The notes below the pieces were generated by a model that did no database searches, was not told the DNA's origin, and saw nothing but the letters and a program-made list of their open reading frames with translations. Shown here piece after piece: positions 67 through 12,346 of a stretch of 12,346 bases of DNA (position 1 is its first letter; each line of letters begins with the position of its first letter). Location: NCBI GenBank assembly GCA_964247135.1, contig CAXTTL010000144.1:1-12346 (forward strand). The letters are read 5' to 3'. Made by a program: the position numbers and the translations under genes. Source of the DNA: an uncultured Deinococcales bacterium. GTDB lineage: Bacteria; Deinococcota; Deinococci; Deinococcales; JAAFIG01.

Positions 67-1512
67 CTATTGCCCCTGTCCCAAGGAAAATCCTGGTTCC
101 CCATCGAATGTGCACAAATTTTCGGTTTTGATGAAGTCAAGACCCTCGAGGGCGACCCTGCCCAGCAAATGCACGATGTCTTCATGCGAGATCGCCAAAC
201 CTTCAGGGACGCTAAAACGCCCACGCCAGTGATCGGTGCGAAACGTTTCGGGGAAACCGCCGGGCCAGACTTTGACCCCTCGGTTGGTAATCATGGTCAG
301 CTTCAGATGATCGAGGTTACAACGCTGCAACTGCACTGCCAAATCCTCGGGGGTTTGACCGCGCCAATTGACAAAAACATCCACGCCCACCGTTTCTTTG
401 CGGGCGGGCAATTTACGCTCGAGCTTGACAGGCGCTTGATGATCTGGATTGATAGCAGCGAAGTGTGTTACGGGCAAGTGTTGCGGCTCGAGTCCAAGGT
501 TTTGGATAATCGCATCGGCGAATTCTTGGGTGCCGACTTTTTGGGCACTCGAACCTGGTTCAAAAATATCAGCGGTGTGGGTTCCCTGCTCAAGGGTTAA
601 AAGCCAAGCGTTTTTGATTTTCGCGGCGACTTCGGGTTGACCAATATGCACCAGCATCAAAACGGCGGCATTGAGTAAACCGCTCGGATTGGCAATGTTC
701 TGCCCAGCGATATCGGGGGCGCTGCCGTGAACGGCTTCAAACATGGCGACGCTATCGCCAATGTTGGCGCTGCCCGCCAAACCGACGCTGCCTGTCACCT
801 CGGCGGCAATGTCTGAAAGAATATCGCCGTACAAGTTTGGTGCGAGGATCACATCAAAACGGTCTGGATTTTCGGCAAGCCGCGCCGCACCGATGTCCAC
901 AATCATGTGATCTTTGCCGATCTCTGGGTACTCGGCTCCCAATTCGTCAAAAACCTTGTGAAACAAACCGTCGGTCAGTTTCATGATGTTGTCTTTGGTC
1001 ACGCAGGTCACATGTTTGCGACCGTGCCGACGGGCGTACTCGAAGGCGTAACGCACGATTCGTTCTGTGCCTGGTCTCGAGATCAGCTTCAGGCATTGCA
1101 CGACCTCATCGGTTTGACGGTGTTCGATGCCCGCGTACAAATCCTCTTCGTTTTCGCGCACGATCACCAGATCAATCTTTTTATGCTTGGTCGCCACAAA
1201 CGGCGCGAAACTCTGGCATGGACGAACATTCGAGTACAAACCAAGGGTTTTGCGAATCGTCACGTTCAAGCTTTTAAAACCACCACCTTGAGGCGTGGTG
1301 ATTGGGCTTTTGAGAAAAACTTTGGTGCGCCTTAAACTTGCCCAACTGCTCGGTTCGATGCCGCTCGAGTGTCCAAGTTCGTAAATGTCTTTGCCAATGG
1401 CAATTTCCTCAAATTGCAATTCTGCGCCCGCCGCCTCGAGGATGCGCAGGGTCGCCTTCATGATTTCGGGTCCGATACCATCGCCGTGAGCTACCGTAAT
1501 GGGAGTTTTCAT
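67..1512 (-). CDS. icd: NADP-dependent isocitrate dehydrogenase (Thermus/Rickettsia-type, with C-terminal extension)
   Basis: 481 aa. Isocitrate/isopropylmalate dehydrogenase motifs GDGIGPEI, KSPITTPQGGGFKSLNVTIRK, RENEED, NLYGDILSD and EAVHGSAPDIAG, plus a C-terminal ITNRGVKVWP...FSLGQG extension. GAGG lies 3 nt before the ATG. Confidence 0.95.
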   Translation of the reverse strand: MKTPITVAHGDGIGPEIMKATLRILEAAGAELQFEEIAIGKDIYELGHSSGIEPSSWASLRRTKVFLKSPITTPQGGGFKSLNVTIRKTLGLYSNVRPCQSFAPFVATKHKKIDLVIVRENEEDLYAGIEHRQTDEVVQCLKLISRPGTERIVRYAFEYARRHGRKHVTCVTKDNIMKLTDGLFHKVFDELGAEYPEIGKDHMIVDIGAARLAENPDRFDVILAPNLYGDILSDIAAEVTGSVGLAGSANIGDSVAMFEAVHGSAPDIAGQNIANPSGLLNAAVLMLVHIGQPEVAAKIKNAWLLTLEQGTHTADIFEPGSSAQKVGTQEFADAIIQNLGLEPQHLPVTHFAAINPDHQAPVKLERKLPARKETVGVDVFVNWRGQTPEDLAVQLQRCNLDHLKLTMITNRGVKVWPGGFPETFRTDHWRGRFSVPEGLAISHEDIVHLLGRVALEGLDFIKTENLCTFDGEPGFSLGQGQ

Positions 1513-1665
1513 TGCCTCGAGAATAACGATTTCAATGTGTGGTAAATCCTATTTTAGTCCTGTTTTTTTTGGGTAACTTTTGAGGCAACCTGGGAGGGTC
1601 TTGCTGTTGTGACAGACCAAATTGGTATTTCGGCATGAACTTTTGGCGCATCTCGAGCTTCAAGG

Positions 1666-1671
1666 TAGACT
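1666..1671 (+). promoter_or_regulatory. -10 box (TAGACT) of a probable leaderless carbonic anhydrase transcript
   Basis: ggTAGACT-ctacggc-GTG; TANNNT 7 nt upstream of the start codon. Confidence 0.65.
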
Positions 1672-1678
1672 CTACGGC

Positions 1679-2218
1679 GTGCCTGAAATTATTGCCGTAA
1701 CCAAAACCGCTGACATCCTCGAACAATACCGCGACACTCCCGTCGGGCATTTACTCGAGTATCACAATTTAAACCGCACTTTTGACCGTTTTGAAAAAGC
1801 CGAATTGCTGGTCGGGATGTGCATGGACAACCGCAAGCAATTGCGCCTGCCCGACAATTTTGCCTACGTGCTGCGAACAAGCGGCGCGAACATGCGTCAC
1901 AACGAATTTCGGGTTTCGTTTGCCATTGGCGTCGGCGGTGTCAGCCACATTGCCTTGGTCGCCCACACCAACTGCGGCATGGTGAAACTGTCTGGGAAAT
2001 ACAATGCCTTTGTGCGCGGCATGATCGACGTGGCGGGCTGGGACGAGCAACGCGCCAAGGATTATTTCTTTCAGTACGCGCCCTTTTTCGAGATCGAGGA
2101 TGAGGTCGAATTCGTGCTGCTCGAGTCACAACGCTTGAGGGATCGTTACCCGAAAGTCAACGTCGTACCACTTTTATACAAAGTCGAGGACGGTTTGCTG
2201 TATCAAATCACACCTTGA
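1679..2218 (+). CDS. Beta-class carbonic anhydrase-like protein
   Basis: Zn-ligand motifs CMDNR and HTNCG. Start moved from the track's 1622 to the in-frame GTG at 1679, which lies 7 nt after a TAGACT -10 box (179 aa). Confidence 0.85.
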   Translation: MPEIIAVTKTADILEQYRDTPVGHLLEYHNLNRTFDRFEKAELLVGMCMDNRKQLRLPDNFAYVLRTSGANMRHNEFRVSFAIGVGGVSHIALVAHTNCGMVKLSGKYNAFVRGMIDVAGWDEQRAKDYFFQYAPFFEIEDEVEFVLLESQRLRDRYPKVNVVPLLYKVEDGLLYQITP

Positions 2219-2232
2219 AACTGCATCTTGAA

Positions 2233-2270
2233 AAACCGTCACTCGAGCCAATGGGCTTGAGTGACGGTTT
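2233..2270. terminator. Hairpin between convergent genes, probable bidirectional terminator
   Basis: Arms AAACCGTCACTCGAGCC and GGCTTGAGTGACGGTTT (17 bp, one non-Watson-Crick position) with a 4-nt loop, between the stops at 2218 and 2288. Confidence 0.75.
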
Positions 2271-2287
2271 CATTGGGCGGGTTGCGT

Positions 2288-2845
2288 CTATCCAACGCCG
2301 TCAAAAATCGGTAATTCCTGCGCGACCTGCAACTCGAGTTTGGGTTTGCCTTGGCTGAATGCCGCAATCCTGGCGCAGACTTTTGCGCCGGCACGCAGGA
2401 TCAGTCGCTCGAGCGCTTGGACGGTGCCGCCGCTGGCAACCACATCGAGCACGATCACGACCTGTTTGCCTTTAAGATTTGCGGCGCGGTTGGAATCGAG
2501 CCACAATGTTTCACCCACGCCCAGGGTCATGCTGGCGACCTCTTGAATCAGCGGATCGTTCATGTACGGACGGCGGCGCTTGCGGGCAACCTCATAAGGC
2601 AGTTTTGAAATTTGCGCCAAATCGTGGACCAGCGGAATGCTCGAGGTCTCGCAGGTGAACAAGACTTCGGCGCTCGTGGGCAGCAGCTTTTGCAATTCTA
2701 GCGCGGCGGCTTCGCACAGCTCGGTATCGCCCAAGAATTCGACCAGCGGCAAGCGGCGGTTCGATGCCAGACGAACCAGCGGCACGTCGCGGGTGACGCC
2801 ACCGATGGTCAAAGAAAACGTTTCGGGCAAAGTTGCTATGCTCAT
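2288..2845 (-). CDS. Adenine phosphoribosyltransferase homolog (APRTh-like, probably catalytically inactive type I PRTase)
   Basis: 185 aa from ATG 2845, with a GGAGG RBS at 2850-2854. PRTase fold, but the PRPP loop reads VIVLDVVASGGT (first Asp of DD lost). LPLVEFLGD, ARKRRRPYM and TLGVGETLWLD resemble Thermus thermophilus APRTh as I recall it. Confidence 0.85.
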   Translation of the reverse strand: MSIATLPETFSLTIGGVTRDVPLVRLASNRRLPLVEFLGDTELCEAAALELQKLLPTSAEVLFTCETSSIPLVHDLAQISKLPYEVARKRRRPYMNDPLIQEVASMTLGVGETLWLDSNRAANLKGKQVVIVLDVVASGGTVQALERLILRAGAKVCARIAAFSQGKPKLELQVAQELPIFDGVG

Positions 2846-2873
2846 AAAACCTCCAAAAAAAGTTGAGGGTTTC

Positions 2874-2899
2874 AGCCTACTCCCAACTCGAGGTTCTGG
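2874..2899 (-). repeat. 26-bp direct repeat, copy 1; contains the TAGGCT -10 box of the APRT-homolog gene
   Basis: AGCCTACTCCCAACTCGAGGTTCTGG; 23/26 identical to 4259-4284. Confidence 0.8.
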
Positions 2900-2997
2900 G
2901 TATGATTTTAAGGAATGTTTGTTGCCGCCCGAGCCAAAGCTGGGCTTGTCGGTCATGAATTTGGCAGGTCAGTGCTGCGACGTTCCCCTGAGCCGAC

Positions 2998-4113
2998 TCA
3001 CAACGAGACGACCACTTTCTTGGCGGATACGCCCTTTCTTTGAATCTCCAGTGCGGATTGAACGTACTCGAGACCCTTTCCAACGGTCTGAGGTTCTGGG
3101 ACGGCGAGGTAGCGGTGGTCCGCCAGAGCTTGGGGCAGGAAATCCTGGTAGACGATTTTGCCGACCTCGTTGTCCATTAAAGTGTTGGCGTTGATGAAGT
3201 TCGAGCGTATGCGCCTGATTTGGAGTTTCGCCAGCAGTGACGCCTGCAACAATCCCAACCGAAGAAGCAACAGCGGAAGCTGCAAGCTGATGCCTCGCTG
3301 AGGAAGGCTGGCAAAAGAGACGGGTGGGCTTGCCATTGAGACGAATTTGTTCCCATTGCAGGCGTGAACAATGTCTGCACAGAACGCCGCCGACCCTGCT
3401 CCGATGGCGAGTGCCCCCGCAATGGTCTTGCCTTTGTACGCCCCAATGATGTCTTTGACGACGGTTTTGCTGTGGTAATCAAAGACTTGGCTTGCGCCCA
3501 GTTTTTTGACGTACTCAAAATTTCGTGGTGAACAAGTTGTGATGACCTCGTATCCGGCAGCCACGGCAAGTTGAATCGCATTGCTGCCAACGCTGGTCGA
3601 GCCGCCCCAGACGAGCAGCGTTTTGCCCGTGGCTTTTGAGGTTGCACACGGGTACTCGAGCGCCAAATGGTCTTTCTGGAACAAGCCGCAGGCGGCGGTG
3701 GACAGTGCCAGGGGCAGGACGGCGGCATTCTCGTAGGACAGGGTACTGGGGATCGCCGCCGCCAAATGCTCGAGGACGACGCTGTACGTCTGAAAAGCCC
3801 CCTCCGCCGCAGTATTTCGCTTTTTATCGGTTCCCACGCCAAAACCCAGAACCCGGTCGGATACCTGAAAACGGGTGACGGCATTGCCGACCTCGGCGAC
3901 CTCGCCCGCAAGATCGGTGCCCAGCACGGCTGGATATTTGAGATGCGGGGCGAACAAGTTGCCGAGGTCTTGCAGTATCCAATCGAAAGGGTTGATCGCC
4001 ACGGCGTGGTTTTTGACGACGATCTCGTTTTCGCGCGGGGGCGTGTAAGGAGCGGCTTTAACCTCGAGTTTGGACTTGCTTGCGTTGAGCCAGGCGGCAG
4101 TGTTGGTTGGCAT
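2998..4113 (-). CDS. Zinc-binding alcohol dehydrogenase family (MDR) oxidoreductase, enoyl-reductase-like
   Basis: 371 aa. GroES-like N-terminus (AVAINPFDW, VLGTDLAGEV), Rossmann motif LLVWGGSTSVG and LGASQVFDY. AAGGA RBS upstream. Confidence 0.9.
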   Translation of the reverse strand: MPTNTAAWLNASKSKLEVKAAPYTPPRENEIVVKNHAVAINPFDWILQDLGNLFAPHLKYPAVLGTDLAGEVAEVGNAVTRFQVSDRVLGFGVGTDKKRNTAAEGAFQTYSVVLEHLAAAIPSTLSYENAAVLPLALSTAACGLFQKDHLALEYPCATSKATGKTLLVWGGSTSVGSNAIQLAVAAGYEVITTCSPRNFEYVKKLGASQVFDYHSKTVVKDIIGAYKGKTIAGALAIGAGSAAFCADIVHACNGNKFVSMASPPVSFASLPQRGISLQLPLLLLRLGLLQASLLAKLQIRRIRSNFINANTLMDNEVGKIVYQDFLPQALADHRYLAVPEPQTVGKGLEYVQSALEIQRKGVSAKKVVVSL

Positions 4114-4258
4114 AGGGTTTTCCTTTTATGGGGCTGAGGTGAATAGTTAAAACGAAAACGGCGAGGGCAGATCACTCGGGGGCAATCCTCGAGGTCTTCA
4201 CCTTTTTTCCAATTGCGATTGCTGCACGCACAGACCCTCCAAATACATACTGGGGTGT

Positions 4259-4284
4259 AGCCTACCCCCAACTCGGGCTTCTGG
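4259..4284 (-). repeat. 26-bp direct repeat, copy 2; contains a TAGGCT -10 box upstream of the oxidoreductase gene
   Basis: AGCCTACCCCCAACTCGGGCTTCTGG; 23/26 identical to 2874-2899. Confidence 0.8.
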
Positions 4285-4291
4285 ATCGAAC

Positions 4292-5110
4292 TCAAAAAAC
4301 GGTTTGTTGACGCTCGAGTCTCGACTGGGCTTTTGGGTCATGGGTCGGCAGGAAAATGGTGGGTCACTCGCCGGCGAAGGTAAGGATTTTGGCGTGCGTG
4401 GCGCTTTGCTGGCTGGCACTCGGACCGACACCGTCAATCCAATCCTCGAGCAAGCCGTCTTGAGAATATGCCGTGTCACCAGCCAAGAAGTAATTCAGGT
4501 CGCCGTCTTTCACGATCACGCTTTGATGAAAGTCGGTGTGCCCGGGCGTCGGCACAATCAGCACATCGCCGGCTTTGGTCAGGCGTTGATGGCGCTCGAA
4601 CGATCCAAATTTTTCAGGCTCGAGGTTGGTAAATTCGGGTTTCCAATTCCGTTGCCAACGTTGCGGCGTGTAACCGTTCAGCCGTCCGACAATCCCACTG
4701 GCTTGGGCGTACTCTCGCCGACTGGCGATGATTCTCGAGTGAGGAAAGTCTTTGATGCCGCCGTCGTGGTCAATGTGCAAATGGGTCAGCACCACCGCAC
4801 GCACATCTTTTGGGGTGATTCCCAGCCGCAGCAGTTGCGCCCCGATCTCCTCTTCGGGTTGGACGTGTATTTTGGCGGCGAGCGCATGAAACGGATGTGG
4901 AATTCCGGCGGGGCGAGCGTGCGTATCGCCCGTGTCAACCACAATCACACCCTCGGGATGCTCGATGACGTAACAGTAAATCGGAAGTTTTTGGGTCCAT
5001 GCAGGTTCGGTCAGGGTGCGCATCAACCTCGAGAAACGGGGGGTGGTCTGGGCGCGAACTTGGCTGGGTTTGATTTGAACGTATCCGGTGCTGATGGCAT
5101 GAACTTTCAT
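4292..5110 (-). pseudogene. N-acyl-homoserine-lactonase-family metallo-beta-lactamase-fold hydrolase interrupted by an in-frame TGA at 4364-4366
   Basis: Motifs VDTG, THLHIDHDG, PTPGHT and LAGD. After ...LTFAGE-TGA the same frame continues PTIFLPTHDPKAQSRLERQQTVF to a TGA at 4292-4294, carrying the family's terminal PxHD metal-ligand motif. Confidence 0.75.
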
Positions 5111-5140
5111 AGGTCATAGCCTAAAGGTAAGCTGGTGCAA
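5111..5140. promoter_or_regulatory. 30-bp divergent promoter region with two back-to-back -10 boxes
   Basis: Minus strand TAGGCT (5123-5118) lies 7 nt before ATG 5110. Plus strand TAAGCT (5128-5133) lies 7 nt before ATG 5141. Confidence 0.7.
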
Positions 5141-5806
5141 ATGGAGACTCAAATTGGAAGTAGAAAAAACCTCTCCGTCAATCGTGCTCAAGCCGCCGCC
5201 CTGCTCGAGCAAACCACGCTTTTGATCCTTGCGCCGTTCGTCAAAACCGAACGCAGCGCCTCGAGCGTGGCGGCAGAATTGGAAATGCCGCTCAACTCGT
5301 TGATGTACCAAATAAGGCGTTTGCTCGAGCTTGAACTGCTCTGCATCAGCCGCAGCGAATCTCGGGCGGGACGGGCGATCAAGTATTACCAGGCGGTTGC
5401 CAAAGTGTTTTCGATTCCGTATCAACTCACCCCAGCCGAAACGCCAGAGGTGCTGCTGATGGAGGAAACCATGCCCAGGCAAAAGCGTTTGATTCGCCAT
5501 CTGGTGCGTGCCAGCCAAGAGGTGCTCGATCAACGCGGCGAATCGGTCTGGGGGGTGCAGGTTGCCCTCGAGGCTGATCGGTTGGTGGTCCGTAACGCGG
5601 TCGGACCGGATTCGGATTGGAATTTTTTAGACCCGACCGCACCCGCCATTTTGGATTACTGGGCAGAGGACATCCAACTCGAGTTTGCAGACGCCAAAGC
5701 GATGCAAGCCGAACTGTGTCACCTGATCGAGCGCTACCGAGCCAAATCTGGGCGGCGAGGTTACATTATCCACGCGGCGATGGCACCAAACACCCTCGAG
5801 CCTTAA
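5141..5806 (+). CDS. Winged helix-turn-helix (ArsR/HTH_20-like) transcriptional regulator
   Basis: SASSVAAELEMPLNSLMYQIRRLLELELL...RAGRAIKYY is an HTH-wing pattern. Divergent from the lactonase-like gene. ATG 5141 preferred over GTG 5135 from -10 spacing. Confidence 0.75.
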   Translation: METQIGSRKNLSVNRAQAAALLEQTTLLILAPFVKTERSASSVAAELEMPLNSLMYQIRRLLELELLCISRSESRAGRAIKYYQAVAKVFSIPYQLTPAETPEVLLMEETMPRQKRLIRHLVRASQEVLDQRGESVWGVQVALEADRLVVRNAVGPDSDWNFLDPTAPAILDYWAEDIQLEFADAKAMQAELCHLIERYRAKSGRRGYIIHAAMAPNTLEP

Positions 5807-5807
5807 C

Positions 5808-6344
5808 TTATTTTTTCAGGTACAACGGCAAATGACCCAGCGAGATCACATCGTCTCGAGCGTCGCCCTCGGTGAACACGGTGAGCGTTGCCACGACCTT
5901 GCCGCCGATTTCTTCCATCAGGCTGCTGAGGCTGCGCAAGGTGCCGCCGGTGCTGACCACATCGTCGATGATTGCCACATTTTTGCCGTGAATGATGTCC
6001 ACGTCAAAACCGTCGATCACCAGCAATTGCGGTTTGCCGGTGGTGATCGAAACGACTTCGCGTATCACTGGGGTTTTCATGTACGGCTTGGCGGTTTTTC
6101 GCGCCACAATGTATGGTTTGCCGGTGATTCTCGAGATCACGTGCGCCAGCGGCACGGCTTTGACTTCGGGCGTGATCAGCACATCGACGTTGCTGGGTAG
6201 TTTTGCCGCCAGCAGTTTACCCGCCTCCTCGGTCATTTGGGTATCGCCGAGAAGATTGAACAGTGCCACGCTGACGCCAGGGGCGACTTCGATGATCGGC
6301 AAGTTACGGCTGATCGAACCAATTTGAACGCGATGGGTTTCCAC
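5808..6344 (-). CDS. apt: Adenine phosphoribosyltransferase (Thermus/Deinococcus type)
   Basis: 178 aa. Intact PRPP-binding motif [13 protein letters not shown], plus [20 protein letters not shown] and [14 protein letters not shown] start 8 nt after a TACAAT -10 box. Confidence 0.85.
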
Positions 6345-6352
6345 GGTGGTTG

Positions 6353-6358
6353 ATTGTA
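6353..6358 (-). promoter_or_regulatory. -10 box (TACAAT) of a probable leaderless apt transcript
   Basis: Minus strand ggTACAAT-caaccacc-GTG; no Shine-Dalgarno between box and start. Confidence 0.65.
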
Positions 6359-6385
6359 CCTTGTTTTGAATGAATGCCCTACAAA

Positions 6386-6427
6386 AAGCTTAAGGATTCG
6401 CACAATCCATTGCGAATCCTCGAGCTT
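6386..6427 (-). terminator. Probable intrinsic terminator of the TPR-like gene
   Basis: Perfect 10-bp stem AGGATTCGCA/TGCGAATCCT with an 8-nt loop, extendable to 17 bp with two mismatches. Followed by a T run on the minus strand, ~15 nt after the stop at 6443. Confidence 0.75.
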
Positions 6428-6442
6428 CAAAAATGCCAAAAC

Positions 6443-7162
6443 CTATTTGTTCAAATCTGCCAGATCACGTTTTGCGCGTTCCAAATCAAGTTTGTCGGCG
6501 GCGTCGCGCGGCTCGAGCTTCACGGCAATCTCGAGTTGGCTTTTGGCGGCGGCTTTGTACTTGTCGCGGTTCAAGAGCAGCAAAGCGTGGGCGTATTCGA
6601 CGCGGTGAATGATGATTTTGGGTTCGATGGCGATGGCGCGTTCAAAGAAATTGATGCTCGCACCCTCGTTCGCGCCGTACAACCAACCCACGCCTTTGGC
6701 GACAATCTCGGCGTGCCAAAGCCCATAAGACACCATGCACTCGGCGCTGCTGCGGTCGAGATCAATGCAAGTCTCGAGGGCGGATTTGACTTTGCTGCCC
6801 AAACCTTGCGAGAGCGCGGCGAGCGTGCCGCGAAGCTGCGAGAGTCGCCCCAGGGCGCGAGCCAGTTCAAAGTAAGCGTCGGCGTACTTGTTGTTGAGTT
6901 TGATGGCGTTGTTGGCGTAGGTTTCGGATGTGGCGTAAATGGCTTCCTGTTTGTTGTCGGGCTGGGTGCTGGCGTAAATGCTGTTGGCTTTGGCTGCCAG
7001 GGTTTGACCTTCCGCCGTTTGAATGTCGCTGGCAATGCCAGTCGCGCCTTTGAAATCACCTTTGGCGTACAACTTTTGGGCGTCTTGTAAGGGCGTGGCA
7101 AAGCTCGAGTTGAGCACCAACATTGCAGCAAACAGCGCGGCAGACAGCAAAATCTTTTTCAT
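6443..7162 (-). CDS. Secreted alpha-helical TPR-like protein
   Basis: 239 aa from ATG 7162 (GGAGG at 7170-7174, TAGACT at 7199-7194). Signal peptide MKKILLSAALFAAMLVLNSSFA and TPR-like units (AIKLNNKYADAYFELARALG; FERAIAIEP; LEIAVKLEP). Confidence 0.8.
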   Translation of the reverse strand: MKKILLSAALFAAMLVLNSSFATPLQDAQKLYAKGDFKGATGIASDIQTAEGQTLAAKANSIYASTQPDNKQEAIYATSETYANNAIKLNNKYADAYFELARALGRLSQLRGTLAALSQGLGSKVKSALETCIDLDRSSAECMVSYGLWHAEIVAKGVGWLYGANEGASINFFERAIAIEPKIIIHRVEYAHALLLLNRDKYKAAAKSQLEIAVKLEPRDAADKLDLERAKRDLADLNK

Positions 7163-7344
7163 AAGGTTTCCTCCAGATTTTTGGACTGAGTTCAGTCTAC
7201 GATGCTCAAGCCTCAAGTTCAACCCTGCCATTCTCGAGCTTCCTTCGTGCTCGACGTGTCAAATGCCCACATTGGGTCTTTAACTTTTCTTGAGATTTGA
7301 TTTTCTTGATTGCTCTCGAGATTGTCGTGCGACCTGGGTTTGTC

Positions 7345-7358
7345 TGCATAAAAATGCT
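7345..7358 (+). promoter_or_regulatory. ARG box (ArgR operator), probable argR autoregulation
   Basis: TGCATAAAAATGCT matches the TGnATAAAAATnCA ARG-box pattern except at the last base. It abuts a TATATT -10-like hexamer (7360-7365) just upstream of argR. Confidence 0.7.
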
Positions 7359-7376
7359 GTATATTCATTTTTACTT

Positions 7377-7835
7377 ATGCTTTCCAAAGAACAGCGTCAT
7401 AAACGAATCGAAGACATTGTGTCCAGGGAATTTGTCCAAACCCAAGCCGAACTGGTCGAACACCTCGAGCGCGACGGCGTGATGGTCACGCAGGCGACGG
7501 TCAGTCGTGACATCACCGAGATGCGCTTGGTGCGCCTGCCAATGGGCAAGGGCAGACACCGTTATGCACTCGCGCCGTTAAGCCTTGCCAGCGATGTCAT
7601 GGACGAGTTAAAAATGCGTTTTAAGCAATTTGTTCACGACGTTGACCGCGGCGAAAATATTTTGGTTTTAAAAACCACCGACGGTCACGCCATCGGTGTG
7701 GCTTACGTGCTGGATCGCCTGTTCCGCGACGACATTGTCGGCACAATTGCTGGGCAAGACACGATTTTTGTCACGGCTCGCACGGTTCTGGCGGCAACGG
7801 CGCTTTTAGAGGAATTTACCGAACTGATGATGTAA
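7377..7835 (+). CDS. argR: Arginine repressor
   Basis: 152 aa from ATG 7377. wHTH motif TQAEL...VTQATVSRD and C-terminal arginine-binding [10 protein letters not shown]. Confidence 0.95.
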
Positions 7836-7898
7836 GCAGTACATGTTCCTGATGATGTAAGCAGTACATGTTCCTGATGATGTAAGCAAGACATGTTC
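7824..7898 (+). repeat. Tandem repeat, 3 x 25 bp, overlapping the argR 3' end
   Basis: CTGATGATGTAAGCAGTACATGTTC at 7824-7848 and 7849-7873 (identical). A third copy at 7874-7898 has GT>AG. No spacers. Confidence 0.95.
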
Positions 7899-7961
7899 AT
7901 GGAATATTGAGCCTCGAGTTTACATTGATGGGTACGGGTTAGACTTTGGTACGGGGTTTTC

Positions 7962-9878
7962 ATGATGTCAGACATCACAATCACAGACACATCTGGCGTC
8001 ATGCTGGGCGGTCGTTACCTGCTGCGCGAACCCGTCGGCGAGGGCGGCATGGCGGTGGTCTGGCGAGCCTACGACACGCATTTAAAGCGCGATGTCGCTT
8101 TAAAGCTGCTTCATGAACACGTGCTGCCCGTGGACCGCGAACGTTTCGGGCGCGAGATTCGCACCCTGGCGCAAATCTCGCACCCTGGCATCATCGGCAT
8201 TTACGACCTCGGCGAGGATGCGGGTCGGGTGTTCTTCACAATGGAATTACTCACCGGAGGTTTGATCTCGAGCATCGGACCGCTCGAGGACAGCGCTGAA
8301 GACTTTGAACGCTTTTTGAGTGTCGCCTGCGAGGCGGCGGACGCGCTGGCGCACATTCATGCCAAAGGGATCGTGCACCGCGACCTGACCCCGCGCAATA
8401 TCCTTTTGGACAAAGACTTTCACCCTCGGGTCATGGATTTTGGACTGGTTTACGTCTCGGACGCCACCAGGGATTTGACCCGAACCGGTTACACGCTCGG
8501 CACACCGCAGTACATGGCTCCAGAACAAGCCAGGGGCGGCGTGGTCGAAGCCGCCAGCGACCTCTACGCCTTTGGGGCGGTGCTGTACCGCGCCGCCACC
8601 GGACGCGCCGTGTTCGAAGCCGACAACGACCAGGGCGTGCTCTACCAACACGTCTACGAAAAACCCAAAAACCTCGAGCAGGTCAATCCAGCCGTGCCGA
8701 GCGCGATCTCGAAGGCGGTCTTGCAATTTCTCGAGAAGCAATCTGGTGATCGTCCGGTTTTGGCGCGGGTCACGCTTGAAGCCGCCGCCGAACGGGTCTG
8801 GCGCGAGCATGTTCCCGCCCAATTCCGTGGCGGCACGGCGCGGACTGGGGTTCATCCTGGCGGTCCAGCTCGAGCCGATCAATTGAAACCAGCCTGGAAC
8901 GTCAACCTGCCCGGTGAAATTGCCTGGCCAATGGCGGTGACCGCCAACCGTGACCATTTTGCGGTCGGCACTCGGTCTGGGGTGCTCAGCGTGCTCGAGC
9001 TGGCGAGCGGGGCGCGTTACGCCGATTTTCCAAGCCTCGACGAGGTGACCGCCGCCGCAACGTTTGACGGCGAGTGCATCGTTTACGCGGGCTGGGACGG
9101 TCTGGTGCGCTGCGTCGAATGGCGCACCGGCGTCACGCGCTGGACCCACCGCACCCGAGCCGAAATTACCGCCGCCCCGACCAAATGGGGCGAAACCTGG
9201 TTGATCGCCTCGAGGGACGAACAGGTGCACGCCGTCAAAAACGGCAAACCCATCTGGGCGTACCGAACCGGTGCGGCGATGGCGGGATCGCCGGTCATTT
9301 GGGGCGGCGTGTGCTTTGTCTGCGACGAGGACGGTTGGCTTCACGCCATCAGCGCCAACACGGGGACGCTCGAGTGGAAGGTCGAATTGGGCAGCGTGCA
9401 CGGCACACCCGCCATTTCGCGCCACCCAAGCCAGCCCGAAGATGCCATCCTGGTCGTGCCGACCTGGCACGGCGAGGTTCACGCGCTGCACCTGTCGAGG
9501 ATTGAAGGTCGTTTGCGCCCGCAAGACGAACCGTTATGGACCTACGACCTCGAGGGTGAAATCTGGGCGTCGCCCGCCATCTGGAATGGACAGGTTTTTT
9601 TGGGGTCGTGGGCGAACAAAGTCCACGCCTTAAAACTCGAGACTGGCGACGATATCTGGGAACTCGAACTCGAGGGACGCCTGACCGCCAGCCCAATCGT
9701 CTCGAGGGGCATGTTGTACCTGGCGTCCGAGGCGGGCGAGGTGCGCGGCGTGCAAGCCAATTCGGGTCGCGTCTTGTTTGAAGATCAACTCGAGGGCGGC
9801 GTGCAATGCACCCCGATCATGACCGATGGAATGCTGATTGTGCCCTCGCTGGACGGAAAAATCCGCTGTTACCGGTAA
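7962..9878 (+). CDS. Hanks-type Ser/Thr protein kinase with C-terminal PQQ-type beta-propeller repeats (RqkA-like)
   Basis: 638 aa. Kinase motifs GEGGMAVV, VALK, HRDLTPRN, DFG and GTPQYMAPE. The C-terminal half has repeated G-x-x-x-W / SP propeller blades (DGWLHAISANTGTLEWKVEL, KVHALKLETGDDIWELEL). The start could be 7965 or 8001. Confidence 0.92.
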   Translation: MMSDITITDTSGVMLGGRYLLREPVGEGGMAVVWRAYDTHLKRDVALKLLHEHVLPVDRERFGREIRTLAQISHPGIIGIYDLGEDAGRVFFTMELLTGGLISSIGPLEDSAEDFERFLSVACEAADALAHIHAKGIVHRDLTPRNILLDKDFHPRVMDFGLVYVSDATRDLTRTGYTLGTPQYMAPEQARGGVVEAASDLYAFGAVLYRAATGRAVFEADNDQGVLYQHVYEKPKNLEQVNPAVPSAISKAVLQFLEKQSGDRPVLARVTLEAAAERVWREHVPAQFRGGTARTGVHPGGPARADQLKPAWNVNLPGEIAWPMAVTANRDHFAVGTRSGVLSVLELASGARYADFPSLDEVTAAATFDGECIVYAGWDGLVRCVEWRTGVTRWTHRTRAEITAAPTKWGETWLIASRDEQVHAVKNGKPIWAYRTGAAMAGSPVIWGGVCFVCDEDGWLHAISANTGTLEWKVELGSVHGTPAISRHPSQPEDAILVVPTWHGEVHALHLSRIEGRLRPQDEPLWTYDLEGEIWASPAIWNGQVFLGSWANKVHALKLETGDDIWELELEGRLTASPIVSRGMLYLASEAGEVRGVQANSGRVLFEDQLEGGVQCTPIMTDGMLIVPSLDGKIRCYR

Positions 9879-9915
9879 AAACTCGAGCCGCCCTATTTGC
9901 GCCTTAGGCTAAAAA

Positions 9916-10425
9916 TCATTTGGTTTTGGTAACGATGTAAAACGTGTCGCTGACACCACCAATGGTCAACGTATAACCAACCGAATCGTTGTACAGGTTG
10001 CTCGAGCTTCCCAACACCCGAATTTTATCGCCCAGTTTCACCATTTTAGGCGTCGATTGCGGACCAAAATACTCGAGGTACTGATCGTTGACATAAACGG
10101 TTGCACCATTTGAAGCCGTCAGCGGCGTCGGTTGATTGACGCCCCGCACCGTGATCGTGTTGCTCGAGACGGCAACGCTCGGGTCTGGGTTGAGGTTTAA
10201 GACAGGCGTGAAACAAAATTGGTTTGGTTCGGTGTCGGGCGTGCTCGAATTGACTGGCGCGATGGTCAGGGTTTGTTCTGTTGGACAGACTTTGGTCAGT
10301 CCAACCGGCGTTCCTGGAGCGCTGTCCACGTTTGGCGCTGGGGCGGGTTGGGTGTTGGCGCTGGGGACGCAAGCACCCAACGTCAACGCCGTTAGCATCA
10401 ACAACGCATTTTGTTTTGAAATCAT
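9916..10425 (-). CDS. Lipoprotein with a single beta-rich (Ig-like) extracellular domain
   Basis: 169 aa from ATG 10425 (GGAGG 10431-10435, TATACT 10451-10446). Lipobox LGA-C, a Pro-rich linker, then DTEPNQFCF...SNTITVRGVN...TLTIGGVSDTFYIVT. Confidence 0.8.
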   Translation of the reverse strand: MISKQNALLMLTALTLGACVPSANTQPAPAPNVDSAPGTPVGLTKVCPTEQTLTIAPVNSSTPDTEPNQFCFTPVLNLNPDPSVAVSSNTITVRGVNQPTPLTASNGATVYVNDQYLEYFGPQSTPKMVKLGDKIRVLGSSSNLYNDSVGYTLTIGGVSDTFYIVTKTK

Positions 10426-10569
10426 CATTTCCTCCTGGAATGCCAAGTATAGCCGCTTGAACCCAAAACCAGCATTGAGCCTGCATTCACAAGTGCCATT
10501 TGGCATGGTGCAAATCAAAAAAGTATGCTGTCCCGAGAAGGATTAATCCTCGAGATTTAAGGAGTTTTG

Positions 10570-11565
10570 ATGTTTGACACAATCATTGTTGGCGGTGGAC
10601 CGGCTGGACTTTCGGCGGCGTTGCATCTGGCGTTTCACAAACGCAATGTCTTGGTGATCGACCGTAAAACTGGACCACTGTTTTACACCCTGACCGAACT
10701 GTGGAACGTCCCAGGTTTTGTCGCGCAAACGGGCGTACAAATTCAAAAAACCATGAAACTCGAGGCGGAAAAGGCGGGGGCGAAAATCGTTTCTGGCAGT
10801 GTCGCTCAGGTTTCTGGGAAGGCTGGAGAATTTGTGCTCGAGACTGAAAAGGGCGGGCGTTTTGAAGCCAAGACGGTTTTGTTGGCGACCGGCGTGGCGC
10901 GGTATCATCCGCTGATTGACGGCGAGTATGAACCGTTTTTGAAGTATGCCGCCAAAGGCAACACGTTTTACTGCCCAGATTGCGAAAGTCCGGAATTGCT
11001 CGGCAAAGATATTGTCGTGATCGGCGTGGCTGGCGCAAACAGCGCCGTGTCCGAAGCCGCGCCGCTGGCGGAATTTGCCAAAAGTGTCAGGCTGCTGCTG
11101 ACGGGCGGCACCGAATTTAAACCAGAATTTGAAGCCAAACGACAAAAACTAAACCTCGAGGTGATCGAGGGTCAGATTGCCAGCGTGGACGGCAAAAAAG
11201 GCATTGTGAAAGCCGTGATTCTCGAGGATGGTACTCGGGTCGAGGCGGACGGATTCTACATTTCATCGCCCAAAGTACCGCGATCTGATTTGGCAAAACA
11301 ACTGGGTTTGCAACTTGCGCCAAAGGGTCACATCAAAACCGGTTGGCGCGGACAGGTCCAACTCGAGGGCGCAGAGGACGGCGAATTTCTGGCGGGGGTC
11401 TGGGCGGCGGGCGATGTTCAACCGCAAACCCAGCAGGTTTCAATTGCCGCAGGTTCGGGCAATATTGCTGCGGTCATGATCGATCAGTATTTGCAAAAAC
11501 TCGAGCCACGGTCATTGGGGCACCAAGCACATCCAGACCACAAAACCGAACTCCAACAACATTAA
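10570..11565 (+). CDS. Thioredoxin-reductase-like FAD-dependent pyridine nucleotide-disulfide oxidoreductase
   Basis: FAD motif IIVGGGPAGLSAA, LLATG, redox CPDC and GVWAAGD. AAGGAG RBS 5 nt before ATG 10570. Confidence 0.88.
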   Translation: MFDTIIVGGGPAGLSAALHLAFHKRNVLVIDRKTGPLFYTLTELWNVPGFVAQTGVQIQKTMKLEAEKAGAKIVSGSVAQVSGKAGEFVLETEKGGRFEAKTVLLATGVARYHPLIDGEYEPFLKYAAKGNTFYCPDCESPELLGKDIVVIGVAGANSAVSEAAPLAEFAKSVRLLLTGGTEFKPEFEAKRQKLNLEVIEGQIASVDGKKGIVKAVILEDGTRVEADGFYISSPKVPRSDLAKQLGLQLAPKGHIKTGWRGQVQLEGAEDGEFLAGVWAAGDVQPQTQQVSIAAGSGNIAAVMIDQYLQKLEPRSLGHQAHPDHKTELQQH

Positions 11566-11619
11566 AACCCAAGTTTTGCTTTTAAACCCGACCTTGATGC
11601 AGCTCAACTTAACTCGAGG

Positions 11620-11625
11620 TAGGCT
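11620..11625 (+). promoter_or_regulatory. -10 box (TAGGCT) of a probable leaderless GH16 transcript
   Basis: ggTAGGCT-aaaacc-ATG; 6 nt spacing. Confidence 0.6.
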
Positions 11626-11631
11626 AAAACC

Positions 11632-12346
11632 ATGAACAAATTGCTGCGATTTTTGAGCCTGTCGTTGCTGGTTTTGATCGTCTCGAGTTCAAGTGTTTCA
11701 AAAACTGTCGCCCAACAAGATTGGAAACTGGTCTGGAGCGATGAATTCAACGGCGTTAAAGGCTCGAGCGTCGATTCCAAAATCTGGAAGCACGACCTTG
11801 GCGGCGGCGGTTGGGGCAACAATGAACTCGAGTTTTACACCGACAAGACCCAAAACGTTTACCAGGACGGCACTGGAAATCTGGTCCTCAAAGCCATCAA
11901 ACAAACCATCAAAGACGGCTGCTGGTACGGCGATTGCGATTTCACCTCGGGAAGAATTCTGACCAAAGGCAGGCTCGAGCGTCAGTACGGTCGGTTTGAA
12001 GCCCGCATCCGCATTCCGACCGACAAGGGCATGTGGGCGGCGTTTTGGTTGCTTGGCGCGAACGTTGGCACGGCGAACTGGCCTTTGTGCGGCGAAATTG
12101 ATATCATGGAAAACAATGGGCGCGACCCCAAAACCGTGCGCGGCACCATTCACGGACCTGGCTATTCGGGTGGCAAAGGGATTGGGGCGCCTTACTCGAG
12201 CGACAAAAGTTTTAGCGCTGGTTTTCATGTGTACGCCGTCGAATGGGAACCCGAAGTGATTCGTTGGTACGTGGACGGAAACCTGTTTCAAACCCGAACG
12301 CCCAAAGATTTACCCGAGGGCGCAAAATGGGTGTATGACCACAACT
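11632..12346 (+). CDS. Secreted glycoside hydrolase family 16 (beta-1,3-glucanase/laminarinase-like), truncated by the window end
   Basis: Not in the ORF track; translated by hand: MNKLLRFLSLSLLVLIVSS...WKLVWSDEFNG...GGGWGNNELEFYT...YGRFEARI...MWAAFWLLG...WPLCGEIDIME...FHVYAVEW...WYVDG. Catalytic EIDIME motif present and no stop before 12346. Confidence 0.93.
   Translation, partial: MNKLLRFLSLSLLVLIVSSSSVSKTVAQQDWKLVWSDEFNGVKGSSVDSKIWKHDLGGGGWGNNELEFYTDKTQNVYQDGTGNLVLKAIKQTIKDGCWYGDCDFTSGRILTKGRLERQYGRFEARIRIPTDKGMWAAFWLLGANVGTANWPLCGEIDIMENNGRDPKTVRGTIHGPGYSGGKGIGAPYSSDKSFSAGFHVYAVEWEPEVIRWYVDGNLFQTRTPKDLPEGAKWVYDHN

Follow-up and report, generated by a model that had tools for sequence, protein, structure and literature searches.

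Positions 1 to 12,346 of contig CAXTTL010000144.1, from an uncultured Deinococcales bacterium (assembly GCA_964247135.1), were analysed here as one stretch of DNA (the window), in which the palindromic hexamer CTCGAG recurs throughout. CTCGAG is very probably a true highly iterated palindrome, a property of the DNA as such that extends throughout the lineage, and subject to a weak and position-independent fixation bias towards the exact six bases. The bias acts alike on non-coding DNA and on all three coding frames and weakens within about 60 bp of a site already present. Its strength suffices for Leu-Glu to have become the most over-represented dipeptide in the encoded proteins.

By exact search the window harbors 72 copies, from position 145 to 12195–12200 (5.8 per kb), which coincides with the approximate manual count of the first-pass annotation of this DNA. 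Two hundred shuffles that preserve the dinucleotide composition of the window yield 2.34 copies on average (standard deviation 1.47, maximum 6), and none of them attains 72. Sixty-two of the sites are genic, with 42 in frame 0 (read as CTC GAG, Leu-Glu), four in frame 1 and 16 in frame 2, while the other ten are located in spacers amounting to 1,030 bp of non-coding DNA (positions in the table below). The first-pass annotation had listed 12 non-coding copies. The discrepancy hinges on the choice of start codons, as 1652, 2887 and 7315 are genic and 4313 is intergenic according to the gene calls employed here; 1652 and 7315 would be non-coding if downstream start codons are the true ones. A site had furthermore been claimed for every internal spacer longer than 30 bp, which applies to ten of the eleven such spacers but not to the 44-bp spacer 2957–3000. 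The occurrence in frames other than Leu-Glu, noted before for the GH16 gene, is seen there in three of five sites (11682, 11763 and 12195, all frame 2). GAGCTC and GTCGAC, for which no similar excess had been noticed, are both absent from the window. An Rfam scan of the window gave no match.

The window is contig C144 of a metagenome-assembled genome (MAG) of 5.09 Mb in 386 contigs, denoted G000, with a completeness of 84%, a contamination of 1.8% and no 16S gene. This genome contains 33,925 copies of CTCGAG, or one per 150 bp, corresponding to an observed/expected ratio (O/E) of 24.8 by composition and of 35 by a first-order model. The word is the most frequent of all 4,096 hexamers, and the next palindrome reaches an O/E of 3.7. 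The family to which the bacterium belongs (f1) comprises 19 genomes in five genera including G000, namely MAGs of 57–94% completeness (G009 being the one at 94%) and one genome, G011, that is a single closed contig of 5.1 Mb. All 18 further genomes are rich in the word, with 12,028–35,442 sites each; the family range is 4.3–6.8 per kb as computed with rounded genome sizes. For comparison, 80 isocitrate dehydrogenase loci across many phyla show a median of 0.11 sites per kb. Given the genome-wide and family-wide counts, among them that of the closed genome, and the low background at these loci, the enrichment is neither a contig nor a cloning artefact, and its confinement to one contig, which the first-pass annotation had considered, is excluded.

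Gene calls for G000 from a self-trained codon model (4,393 genes, 84% coding) are in accord with those genes of the window that Pfam supports. On this basis CTCGAG occurs 6.66 times per kb of coding DNA and 6.68 times per kb of intergenic DNA. The spacers hold 5,440 sites where 164 are expected, a 33-fold excess over composition, and 84% of all sites are coding. When synonymous codons are shuffled within each gene, which retains the proteins as well as the already inflated codon usage, about 4,000 coding sites are obtained instead of the 28,517 observed, and the excess amounts to 5.7-fold, 15-fold and 11-fold in frames 0, 1 and 2, respectively. The opinion of the first-pass annotation that Leu-Glu codon pairs are insufficient as an explanation is thus upheld, with an excess of about 7-fold overall that extends to every frame. 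Genes of native and of atypical codon usage have nearly equal densities, and among the 2,987 genes of 600 bp or more just 18 lack a site altogether.

The effect on the proteins is considerable. In-frame Leu-Glu accounts for 63% of the coding sites (17,898 of 28,517), and Leu-Glu has an O/E of 2.36, the highest of all 400 dipeptides, compared with 1.01 for Glu-Leu. Of 23,096 Leu-Glu pairs, 17,898 (77.5%) are spelled CTCGAG, as opposed to about 5–11% expected from codon use. Sites in frames 1 and 2 contain 32% of the CGA codons and 29% of the TCG codons. Counted from the first base of the stop codon, 195 genes have a site beginning 5 nt downstream, roughly four times as many as in the background. 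This peak is due to the flank preference of the motif, which favours A at positions −3 and −2, and a TAA or TGA stop codon provides this base.

The unit under bias is the exact hexamer. Half-sites with flexible spacing are ruled out, since CTC-N(k)-GAG with k = 1–8 is found at 0.33–1.4 of expectation, and so is a TCGA core of the TaqI type as the unit, since TCGA occurs about as often as expected once CTCGAG is set aside; both GTCGAC and TTCGAA are rare. A flank preference of the form AAR|CTCGAG|YTT is weak and symmetric. At intergenic sites the palindrome extends by at least one, two or three base pairs in 21%, 6.2% and 2.5% of cases, where chance would give 25%, 6.25% and 1.6%, so that the sites are not the centres of longer hairpins or terminators. 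Repeats of the repetitive extragenic palindrome or miniature inverted-repeat transposable element type are dismissed for the same lack of extension, for the 84% share of coding sites and for the origin of the sites by substitution described below.

The distances between sites in G000 reveal exclusion at short range and no order beyond. The pair correlation is 0.25 at 6–11 bp, rises to about 1 at 66 bp and remains flat out to 1.2 kb, without helical or longer phasing, preferred spacing or short-range periodicity, which rules out a regular protein array or helical phasing. Turnover of sites is moreover locally compensated. In the comparison with the congener G005, a site present only in G005 lies within 60 bp of 18.6% of the sites present only in G000 (n = 333), but of 13.1% of random positions and of 9.0% of the shared sites (n = 1,294).

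Two alignments to G000 document how the sites evolve, one with G005 (350 kb used, 229 kb aligned, intergenic identity 84%) and one with 400 kb of the closed genome G011, which belongs to another genus. In G005, 156 of 188 intergenic sites are intact (0.83) compared with 0.43 for other intergenic hexamers, and the intact fractions in coding DNA are 0.82, 0.70 and 0.82 for frames 0, 1 and 2 compared with 0.45. Between G011 and G000 the values are 0.27–0.43 for sites and 0.13–0.17 for controls. CTCGAG ranks second of 1,281 hexamers in conservation, and the words comparable to it all contain ATG; hexamers of the same composition reach 0.48, and few words are less stable than the transition neighbours of CTCGAG (CTCAAG 0.15). 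The same codon was also compared inside and outside the motif, following the test design of Xu et al. Where Leu is kept, CTC codons are retained at 0.915 inside sites (n = 820) and at 0.575 outside (n = 992), and the corresponding values for GAG codons are 0.925 (n = 800) and 0.704 (n = 931). The genome-wide process acting at the DNA level that the first-pass annotation had postulated is in agreement with all of this, namely with the spread of sites over genome and family, their equal density in coding and intergenic DNA, and their conservation at orthologous positions including non-coding and synonymous ones.

From these data the loss rate of sites relative to controls is 0.16–0.22. The weak-selection formula S/(e^S−1) links such a ratio to S, and S = 2Nes is accordingly 2.5–3.0 per site, an estimate that presumes neutral evolution of the out-of-site codons and intergenic hexamers. 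An independent estimate, the logarithm of the intergenic ratio of sites to transition neighbours, is close to it (2.6–2.8), and the logarithm of the overall enrichment (25- to 33-fold, giving 3.2–3.5) is of similar size. As loss rates and abundance ratios match, a single weak and position-independent bias explains both the abundance and the retention of the word. Turnover proceeds by point substitution, since 570 of 598 unshared sites align without gaps. Templated 'writing' of several bases at a time is rejected, because intergenic changes of three or more bases are not commoner at sites (12%) than elsewhere (17%); an excess of multi-base changes in coding DNA consists of synonymous Leu and Glu codon swaps. 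Strain-specific inserts are already at full motif density.

A map of 301 genomes, all from one order and with no claim based on the unpublished G269, depicts f1 as the extreme of a trait that is graded across the order. Intermediate densities of 1.4–3.5 per kb, with CTCGAG/GAGCTC ratios of up to about 120, are found in genera g13, g22 and g24 of family f5 and in several genera of family f2. In genus g9 the two words are equally frequent. Genus g7 of family f3 (100 genomes, 1.9–6.7 Mb) is depleted of CTCGAG, with 26–1,010 sites per genome, opposite to two motif-rich genomes of the same family, G204 (3.6 per kb) and G257 (7.0 per kb). G205, a congener of G257 with 2.29 Mb in 5 contigs, has 0.3 sites per kb, so that the two congeners differ about 20-fold. 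A sample of 97 kb from G257 (GC 0.515) contains 714 sites (28-fold enrichment), with GAGCTC and many GC-rich palindromes absent, whereas 405 kb of G205 (GC 0.501) contain 127 sites (1.3-fold) and show no avoidance of GC-rich palindromes. In the N-terminus of alanyl-tRNA synthetase G257 and G205 are mutually closest (75% identity versus 67% to G000). G257 and G000 have 43 of 85 aligned sites in common at a DNA identity of 69%, for which conserved Leu-Glu pairs may be as plausible a reason as common descent. Among viral contigs of IMG/VR a host-like asymmetry is observed, for example in L232 (49 CTCGAG and 2 GAGCTC in 14.7 kb) and L224 (48 and 3). These two and L223, L235 and L281 were chosen by a scan for site clusters, and they therefore serve as leads and do not show enrichment.

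The search for the responsible machinery included enzymes that methylate or cut DNA. Methyltransferases were searched with five Pfam classes (PF00145, PF01555, PF02384, PF07669 and PF02086). G000 carries eleven DNA-methyltransferase genes or fragments. Four adjoin nucleases of the MvaI/BcnI, NotI-like, Eco29kI and SacI-family types; the others are two MmeI-like enzymes, one HsdM-like enzyme, one fusion to an SNF2 helicase, one partial fragment and two solitary enzymes. Neither solitary enzyme qualifies as a family-wide orphan, as the N6_N4 enzyme on C36 and the C5 enzyme on C14 each have close orthologs in just two other f1 genomes, and the latter has no homolog in G008. The enzymes on C207 (with the NotI-like nuclease), C178 (with Eco29kI) and C189 (with MvaI/BcnI) were rejected as parts of restriction-modification (R-M) pairs, and the gamma-class methyltransferase of G009 as sporadic or part of an R-M pair. 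Matches to N6_Mtase form a patchwork over the 19 genomes, and PF01555 has no match in the closed G011. In sum, within the five classes no methyltransferase ortholog common to f1 was found in the MAGs of 57–94% completeness and the one closed genome; an R-M system or orphan of a standard class shared by the family thus appears to be lacking, and an unconventional or unassembled enzyme is possible. The sequences of the enzymes do not by themselves disclose which word each one recognises. As an observation apart, the fusion gene on C112 (L099:1671-6167, minus strand) encodes a protein of 1,499 residues with an N6-adenine methyltransferase domain joined to an SNF2-type helicase, and it is bordered by a series of small genes that contain little or no CTCGAG and may form a mobile or defence island.

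The XhoI nuclease family (PF04555) was found in none of the 17 f1 genomes searched and in 4 of 64 others of the order. An R-M system of the XhoI type was rejected on this ground and because both types of methyltransferase neighbouring the nuclease in sister families lack a close f1 homolog. Vsr (PF03852) was not detected in any of the 19 f1 genomes, and the deamination neighbour CTTGAG/CTCAAG shows no depletion (O/E 1.17, and 1.71 in intergenic DNA); on both results repair of the Vsr type was rejected. The link to methylation suggested by the first-pass annotation thus found no support with the queries used. In genus g24, which has 3.1–3.4 sites per kb, G147 and G189 encode a gamma-class methyltransferase that is 50–52% identical to the one adjacent to an XhoI-family nuclease, with housekeeping genes around it and no nuclease beside it (table). 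From its sequence and setting this may be an orphan CTCGAG methyltransferase. Competence genes do not discriminate, as each of the five genomes searched has ComEC and DprA, the motif-poor G205 among them. The RecB-family nuclease (PF12705) gave weak matches only, in 3 of 6 other f1 genomes, with none at E ≤ 1e-5 in G011, G008 and G007, while the motif-poor G028 has a strong AddAB-like pair; a system of Chi and AddAB was rejected on account of this distribution and of the palindromic nature of the word.

The mirror word GAGCTC is missing from the whole 5.09 Mb of G000, and most f1 genomes have at most 25 copies. On contig C320 of G000 (locus L182: 320-1414 and 1411-2244, both on the minus strand) a D12-class adenine methyltransferase adjoins a SacI-family nuclease. 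SacI cuts GAGCTC, and with such a pair present the absence of that word is ordinary restriction avoidance. Of the 17 f1 genomes searched, 10 have a SacI-family nuclease, compared with none of 64 elsewhere in the order, and orthologs of the D12 methyltransferase occur in 7 of 19 f1 genomes; between congeners the nuclease is 52% and the methyltransferase 76% identical. As a keeper of CTCGAG the pair can be discarded, for it is absent from the motif-rich G009 and found in only those 10 of 17 genomes. About twenty GC-rich palindromes are nearly absent from G000, such as GGCC (380 copies, O/E 0.02), GGGCCC (1), CGGCCG (3), AGGCCT (4), CGTACG (5), GGATCC (7), CCGCGG (11) and CAGCTG (15). By the recognition sites of such enzymes, the NotI-like, Eco29kI and MvaI/BcnI pairs on C207, C178 and C189 match some of these words.

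The first-pass annotation had offered methylation-directed repair, a nucleoid or recombination signal and an uptake tag as possible mechanisms. Judging from the sequence data, the bias may quite possibly originate in a sequence-specific step of DNA exchange or repair and thus represent a molecular drive. Motif-bearing DNA would either be preferentially taken up or integrated, or mismatches in heteroduplexes would be repaired towards the allele with the motif, and by either route the drive would be of the uptake-sequence or biased-gene-conversion kind. A somewhat more tentative formulation is that a methylation-independent drive of uptake or heteroduplex repair could write one 6-bp word per about 150 bp throughout the family and in doing so double Leu-Glu. 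Such a drive is favoured because the force is weak and uniform and does not distinguish coding from non-coding DNA, and because there is no spacing pattern as would result from a structural lattice. A weak force also fits the patchy distribution exemplified by G257 and G205, and the presence of ComEC and DprA makes uptake at least possible. Two further arguments derive from HIP1 (GCGATCGC), the highly iterated palindrome of cyanobacteria. The loss of CTCGAG in the small genome of G205 parallels the weakness or absence of HIP1 in obligate symbionts (table in Elhai 2015), and HIP1 has been reported to raise natural transformation (PMC13756078), which favours a drive as well.

Several points weigh against a drive. 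No reader or writer protein was found, and the mechanism is inferred from the statistics of sequences. Per-site selection and biased conversion forecast equal retention, so that the data do not separate the two, and the strength estimate carries the neutrality assumption named above. A hexamer is a poor discriminator in uptake, because foreign DNA contains one per about 4 kb, and uptake models predict interference on the scale of fragments instead of the roughly 60 bp seen here. ComEC and DprA are equally present in the motif-poor G205, and among the relatives g7 is depleted and g9 is without excess; if these two genera correspond to Deinococcus and Thermus, relatives with natural competence would be devoid of the motif. 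Finally, the negative result for methyltransferases is limited to incomplete MAGs and five Pfam classes, and the candidate enzyme of g24 may point to a methylation route in part of the order.

On that alternative view CTCGAG is the target of an orphan methyltransferase, and the sites are created and kept through mismatch repair guided by methylation (the ratchet of Elhai) or through a methylation-dependent function. It would follow the published pattern of HIP1 and alternate HIPs, in which a methyltransferase for the abundant word is present (Elhai 2015), the enzymes of G147 and G189 amid housekeeping genes are of the XhoI-associated gamma type, and in MAGs as incomplete as those of f1 a gene could be missed. 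Nevertheless the route is considered unlikely for the family. There is no f1-wide ortholog, the solitary enzymes being confined to two other genomes each and the D12 enzyme (7 of 19) belonging to an R-M pair; the closed G011 without PF01555, G008 without the C5 homolog and the missing close homologs of the XhoI-adjacent types point the same way, as do the absence of Vsr and the undepleted CTTGAG/CTCAAG. The model of Elhai, in addition, saturates at about one site per 1,000 nt, compared with one per 150 nt and an interference range of about 60 bp here.

About equally improbable is that every site serves as a binding site of an abundant protein of the chromosome, one that takes part in organising the nucleoid, in segregation or in replication, and that direct weak selection keeps the sites. 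An exact 6-bp palindrome with a symmetric flank preference suits a dimeric DNA-binding protein, the exclusion zone of about 60 bp might be its footprint, and the density is locally buffered and uniform over genes; a role in chromosome structure has been argued for HIP1 (Xu et al.). Against this stand the lack of preferred spacing, helical phasing or an array beyond 66 bp and the fact that no candidate protein was found. G205 is without the motif even though it is the nearest relative of the motif-rich G257, which makes an essential architectural role hard to hold.

Far less credible is a marker of self DNA in nuclease-based defence, comparable to a Chi without orientation, whereby motif-poor DNA would be degraded and motif-rich DNA spared or recombined. 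The asymmetry shared by the viral contigs L232 and L224 would agree with it, and so would the extreme palindrome avoidance of motif-rich genomes, which suggests heavy traffic of restriction systems. However, RecB-family nucleases do not follow the motif (none in G011, G008 and G007, a strong pair in G028), the viral contigs, having been picked for their clusters of sites, cannot show enrichment, and strain-specific inserts at full density give no sign that motif-poor DNA has been purged. An origin of the excess in codon or dipeptide preferences, or in faulty assembly or binning, can practically be dismissed: although most coding sites are in-frame Leu-Glu and CTC-GAG pairs give 1–2 sites per kb in GC-rich relatives, it is ruled out by the equal intergenic density, the excesses in frames 1 and 2, the asymmetry between Leu-Glu and Glu-Leu and the richness of 19 of 19 f1 genomes including the closed one.

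The features of the window are compiled in the table. The isocitrate dehydrogenase has its closest named match, at 70% identity, in a MAG labelled uncultured Meiothermus, which is in line with Deinococcota, although this gene does not resolve the lineage. A segment of 2.9 kb is strain-specific, being absent from G004 (C113) and G005 (C82), where its identical flanks adjoin, and it has the full motif density (17 sites, 5.8 per kb). Sites located 5 and 7 bp inside its two ends suggested that the motif might mark junctions of gene cassettes. This was ruled out with 15 indels, none of whose 26 ends lies within 10 bp of a site where 7.6% were expected, and the proximity at the ends of the segment is therefore due to chance. 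Another observation concerns the open reading frames (ORFs) of the window, which contains 34 of at least 100 codons for 13 genes; many long frames run antisense to genes, which is unusual at 53% GC, for instance 4304–5119 (+) over the frame 4364–5110 (−) of the metallo-beta-lactamase-fold gene and 8247–9524 (−) over the frame 7962–9878 (+) of the kinase gene.

Table. Genes, intergenic CTCGAG sites and the strain-specific segment of the window, followed by the candidate methyltransferase loci of genus g24. Site positions refer to the first base; f0, f1 and f2 in the last column denote reading frames 0, 1 and 2.
Feature	Position	Strand	CTCGAG sites and remarks
Isocitrate dehydrogenase gene	70..1512	-	Pfam Iso_dh; 6 sites: 145, 418, 487, 1435 (f0); 1076, 1364 (f2)
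Intergenic site	1516..1521		109-bp spacer 1513-1621
Gene with weak carbonic-anhydrase match	1622..2215	+	Pfam; 3 sites: 1652, 1754, 2120 (f0)
Intergenic site	2242..2247		Spacer 2216-2290
Phosphoribosyltransferase gene	2291..2956	-	Pfam; 4 sites: 2333, 2408 (f0); 2887 (f1); 2640 (f2)
Strain-specific 2.9-kb segment (ADH-like, metallo-beta-lactamase-fold and HTH genes)	2882..5804		From comparison with congeners
Zinc alcohol-dehydrogenase (ADH)-like gene	3001..4113	-	Pfam; 4 sites: 3067, 3655, 3769, 4063 (f0)
Two intergenic sites	4188..4318		4188 and 4313; 253-bp spacer 4114-4366
Metallo-beta-lactamase-fold gene	4367..5110	-	Pfam; 4 sites: 4445, 4619 (f0); 4734, 5028 (f2)
HTH-containing gene	5135..5803	+	Pfam; 6 sites: 5204, 5324, 5567, 5678, 5795 (f0); 5260 (f2)
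Phosphoribosyltransferase gene	5811..6344	-	Pfam; 2 sites: 5855 (f1); 6130 (f2)
Intergenic site	6419..6424		Spacer 6345-6445
TPR-repeat gene	6446..7231	-	Pfam; 4 sites: 6512, 6530, 6773 (f0); 7104 (f2)
Intergenic site	7233..7238		Spacer 7232-7289
Arginine repressor gene	7290..7832	+	Pfam; 2 sites: 7464 (f0); 7315 (f1)
Intergenic site	7913..7918		Spacer 7833-7961
Ser/Thr kinase with PQQ beta-propeller	7962..9875	+	Pfam; 13 sites: 8283, 8673, 8730, 8994, 9369, 9549, 9636, 9669, 9789 (f0); 8869 (f1); 8267, 9209, 9701 (f2)
Intergenic site	9882..9887		Spacer 9876-9918
Gene without Pfam match	9919..10518	-	3 sites: 10072 (f0); 10001, 10163 (f2)
Intergenic site	10549..10554		Spacer 10519-10566
Pyridine-nucleotide disulphide oxidoreductase gene	10567..11562	+	6 sites: 10759, 10837, 11155, 11221, 11362, 11500 (f0)
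Intergenic site	11613..11618		Spacer 11563-11631
GH16 glycoside hydrolase gene, running beyond the window	11632..12345	+	5 sites: 11827, 11974 (f0); 11682, 11763, 12195 (f2)
g24 methyltransferase, G189	L335:1447-3108	-	Housekeeping genes around, no nuclease beside
g24 methyltransferase, G147	L334:1138-2745	+	Housekeeping genes around, no nuclease beside

For three decades the iterated palindromes of cyanobacterial genomes have been puzzling (PMC13756078). A second such system, denser, independent and family-wide, indicates the generality of the phenomenon, and it belongs to Deinococcota, a phylum noted for its DNA repair and natural competence. The leading model relies on a link to cognate methyltransferases, which this system loosens. 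Any mechanism has to reproduce the figures given here, namely a 2Nes of about 2.5–3, interference up to about 60 bp, the lack of phasing and the origin by substitution. If the drive is true, this would be the first dense system of the HIP type outside cyanobacteria. The graded series of about 300 genomes together with the on/off pair of G257 and G205 renders phyletic profiling for the responsible gene feasible, and in practice motif density offers a strong signature when such genomes are binned and a flag for DNA imported into them.

No published report of CTCGAG as an iterated or over-represented palindrome, in Meiothermus and Deinococcus or otherwise, was found by a search that extended to neither subscription journals nor supplements. 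By titles and abstracts CTCGAG occurs together with Meiothermus in cloning primers only, and the text of Elhai 2015 makes no mention of the word. New are the estimate of strength, interference with compensation, the negative results for methyltransferase, Vsr and XhoI, and the explanation for the missing GAGCTC, as well as the order-wide map of a graded trait, the pair of G257 and G205 and the orphan-like methyltransferase of g24.

Among known systems several share single properties with CTCGAG. XhoI and PaeR7I have the very same recognition site, but restriction systems normally cause avoidance of their own site, whereas the word is over-represented here and the nuclease family was found in none of the 17 f1 genomes searched. 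Very-short-patch repair by Vsr and Dcm shifts the frequencies of CCWGG and CTAG throughout the genome of E. coli; it differs in that no Vsr was found in the 19 f1 genomes, the deamination neighbour is undepleted and the effect on CTCGAG is far larger. Chi sites with RecBCD or AddAB are short over-represented words as well, under weak selection, and mark self DNA for recombination, but they are asymmetric and oriented with replication, in contrast to the palindromic CTCGAG, which RecB-family nucleases do not follow. The uptake signal sequences of Pasteurellaceae and the DNA uptake sequences of Neisseriaceae are genome-wide words found in all frames and in spacers, maintained by a weak drive linked to transformation and affecting peptides. 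The weak per-site force and additive behaviour of CTCGAG are as such a drive predicts. These uptake sequences are, however, non-palindromic words of 9–12 bp with about one copy per kb, whereas CTCGAG is an exact 6-bp palindrome with a weak flank preference only and 6.7 copies per kb, and ComEC and DprA do not discriminate.

Closer likenesses exist in cyanobacteria. GGCGCC of Calothrix PCC 7103 is a 6-bp palindrome too, an outlier among hexamers with unenriched neighbouring words (Elhai 2015). It is sporadic, being known from one strain and a fragment of another, and is accompanied by two methyltransferases able to modify it, whereas CTCGAG is common to all 19 genomes of a family and, as a graded trait, to much of the order, with no such enzyme found. 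The greatest similarity is to HIP1, likewise a short GC-rich palindrome in genes and spacers, 15- to 300-fold over-represented, conserved between genomes beyond its own codons (Xu et al.) and spreading by substitution, not insertion (PMC13756078); both words are lineage-wide with exceptional members that lack them. HIP1 shows a large-scale periodicity of 10–90 kb along the chromosome (Xu et al. 2018). In contrast to HIP1-rich genomes, which generally have GATC- and CGATCG-specific enzymes, no family-wide cognate methyltransferase was found in f1, and the one-off variants of CTCGAG are not concentrated at the outer positions as those of HIP1 are (Elhai 2015). The word itself is of 6 bp instead of 8 and belongs to another phylum, and with one copy per 150 nt it is considerably denser than HIP1, which reaches at most one per 350 nt (Xu et al.).

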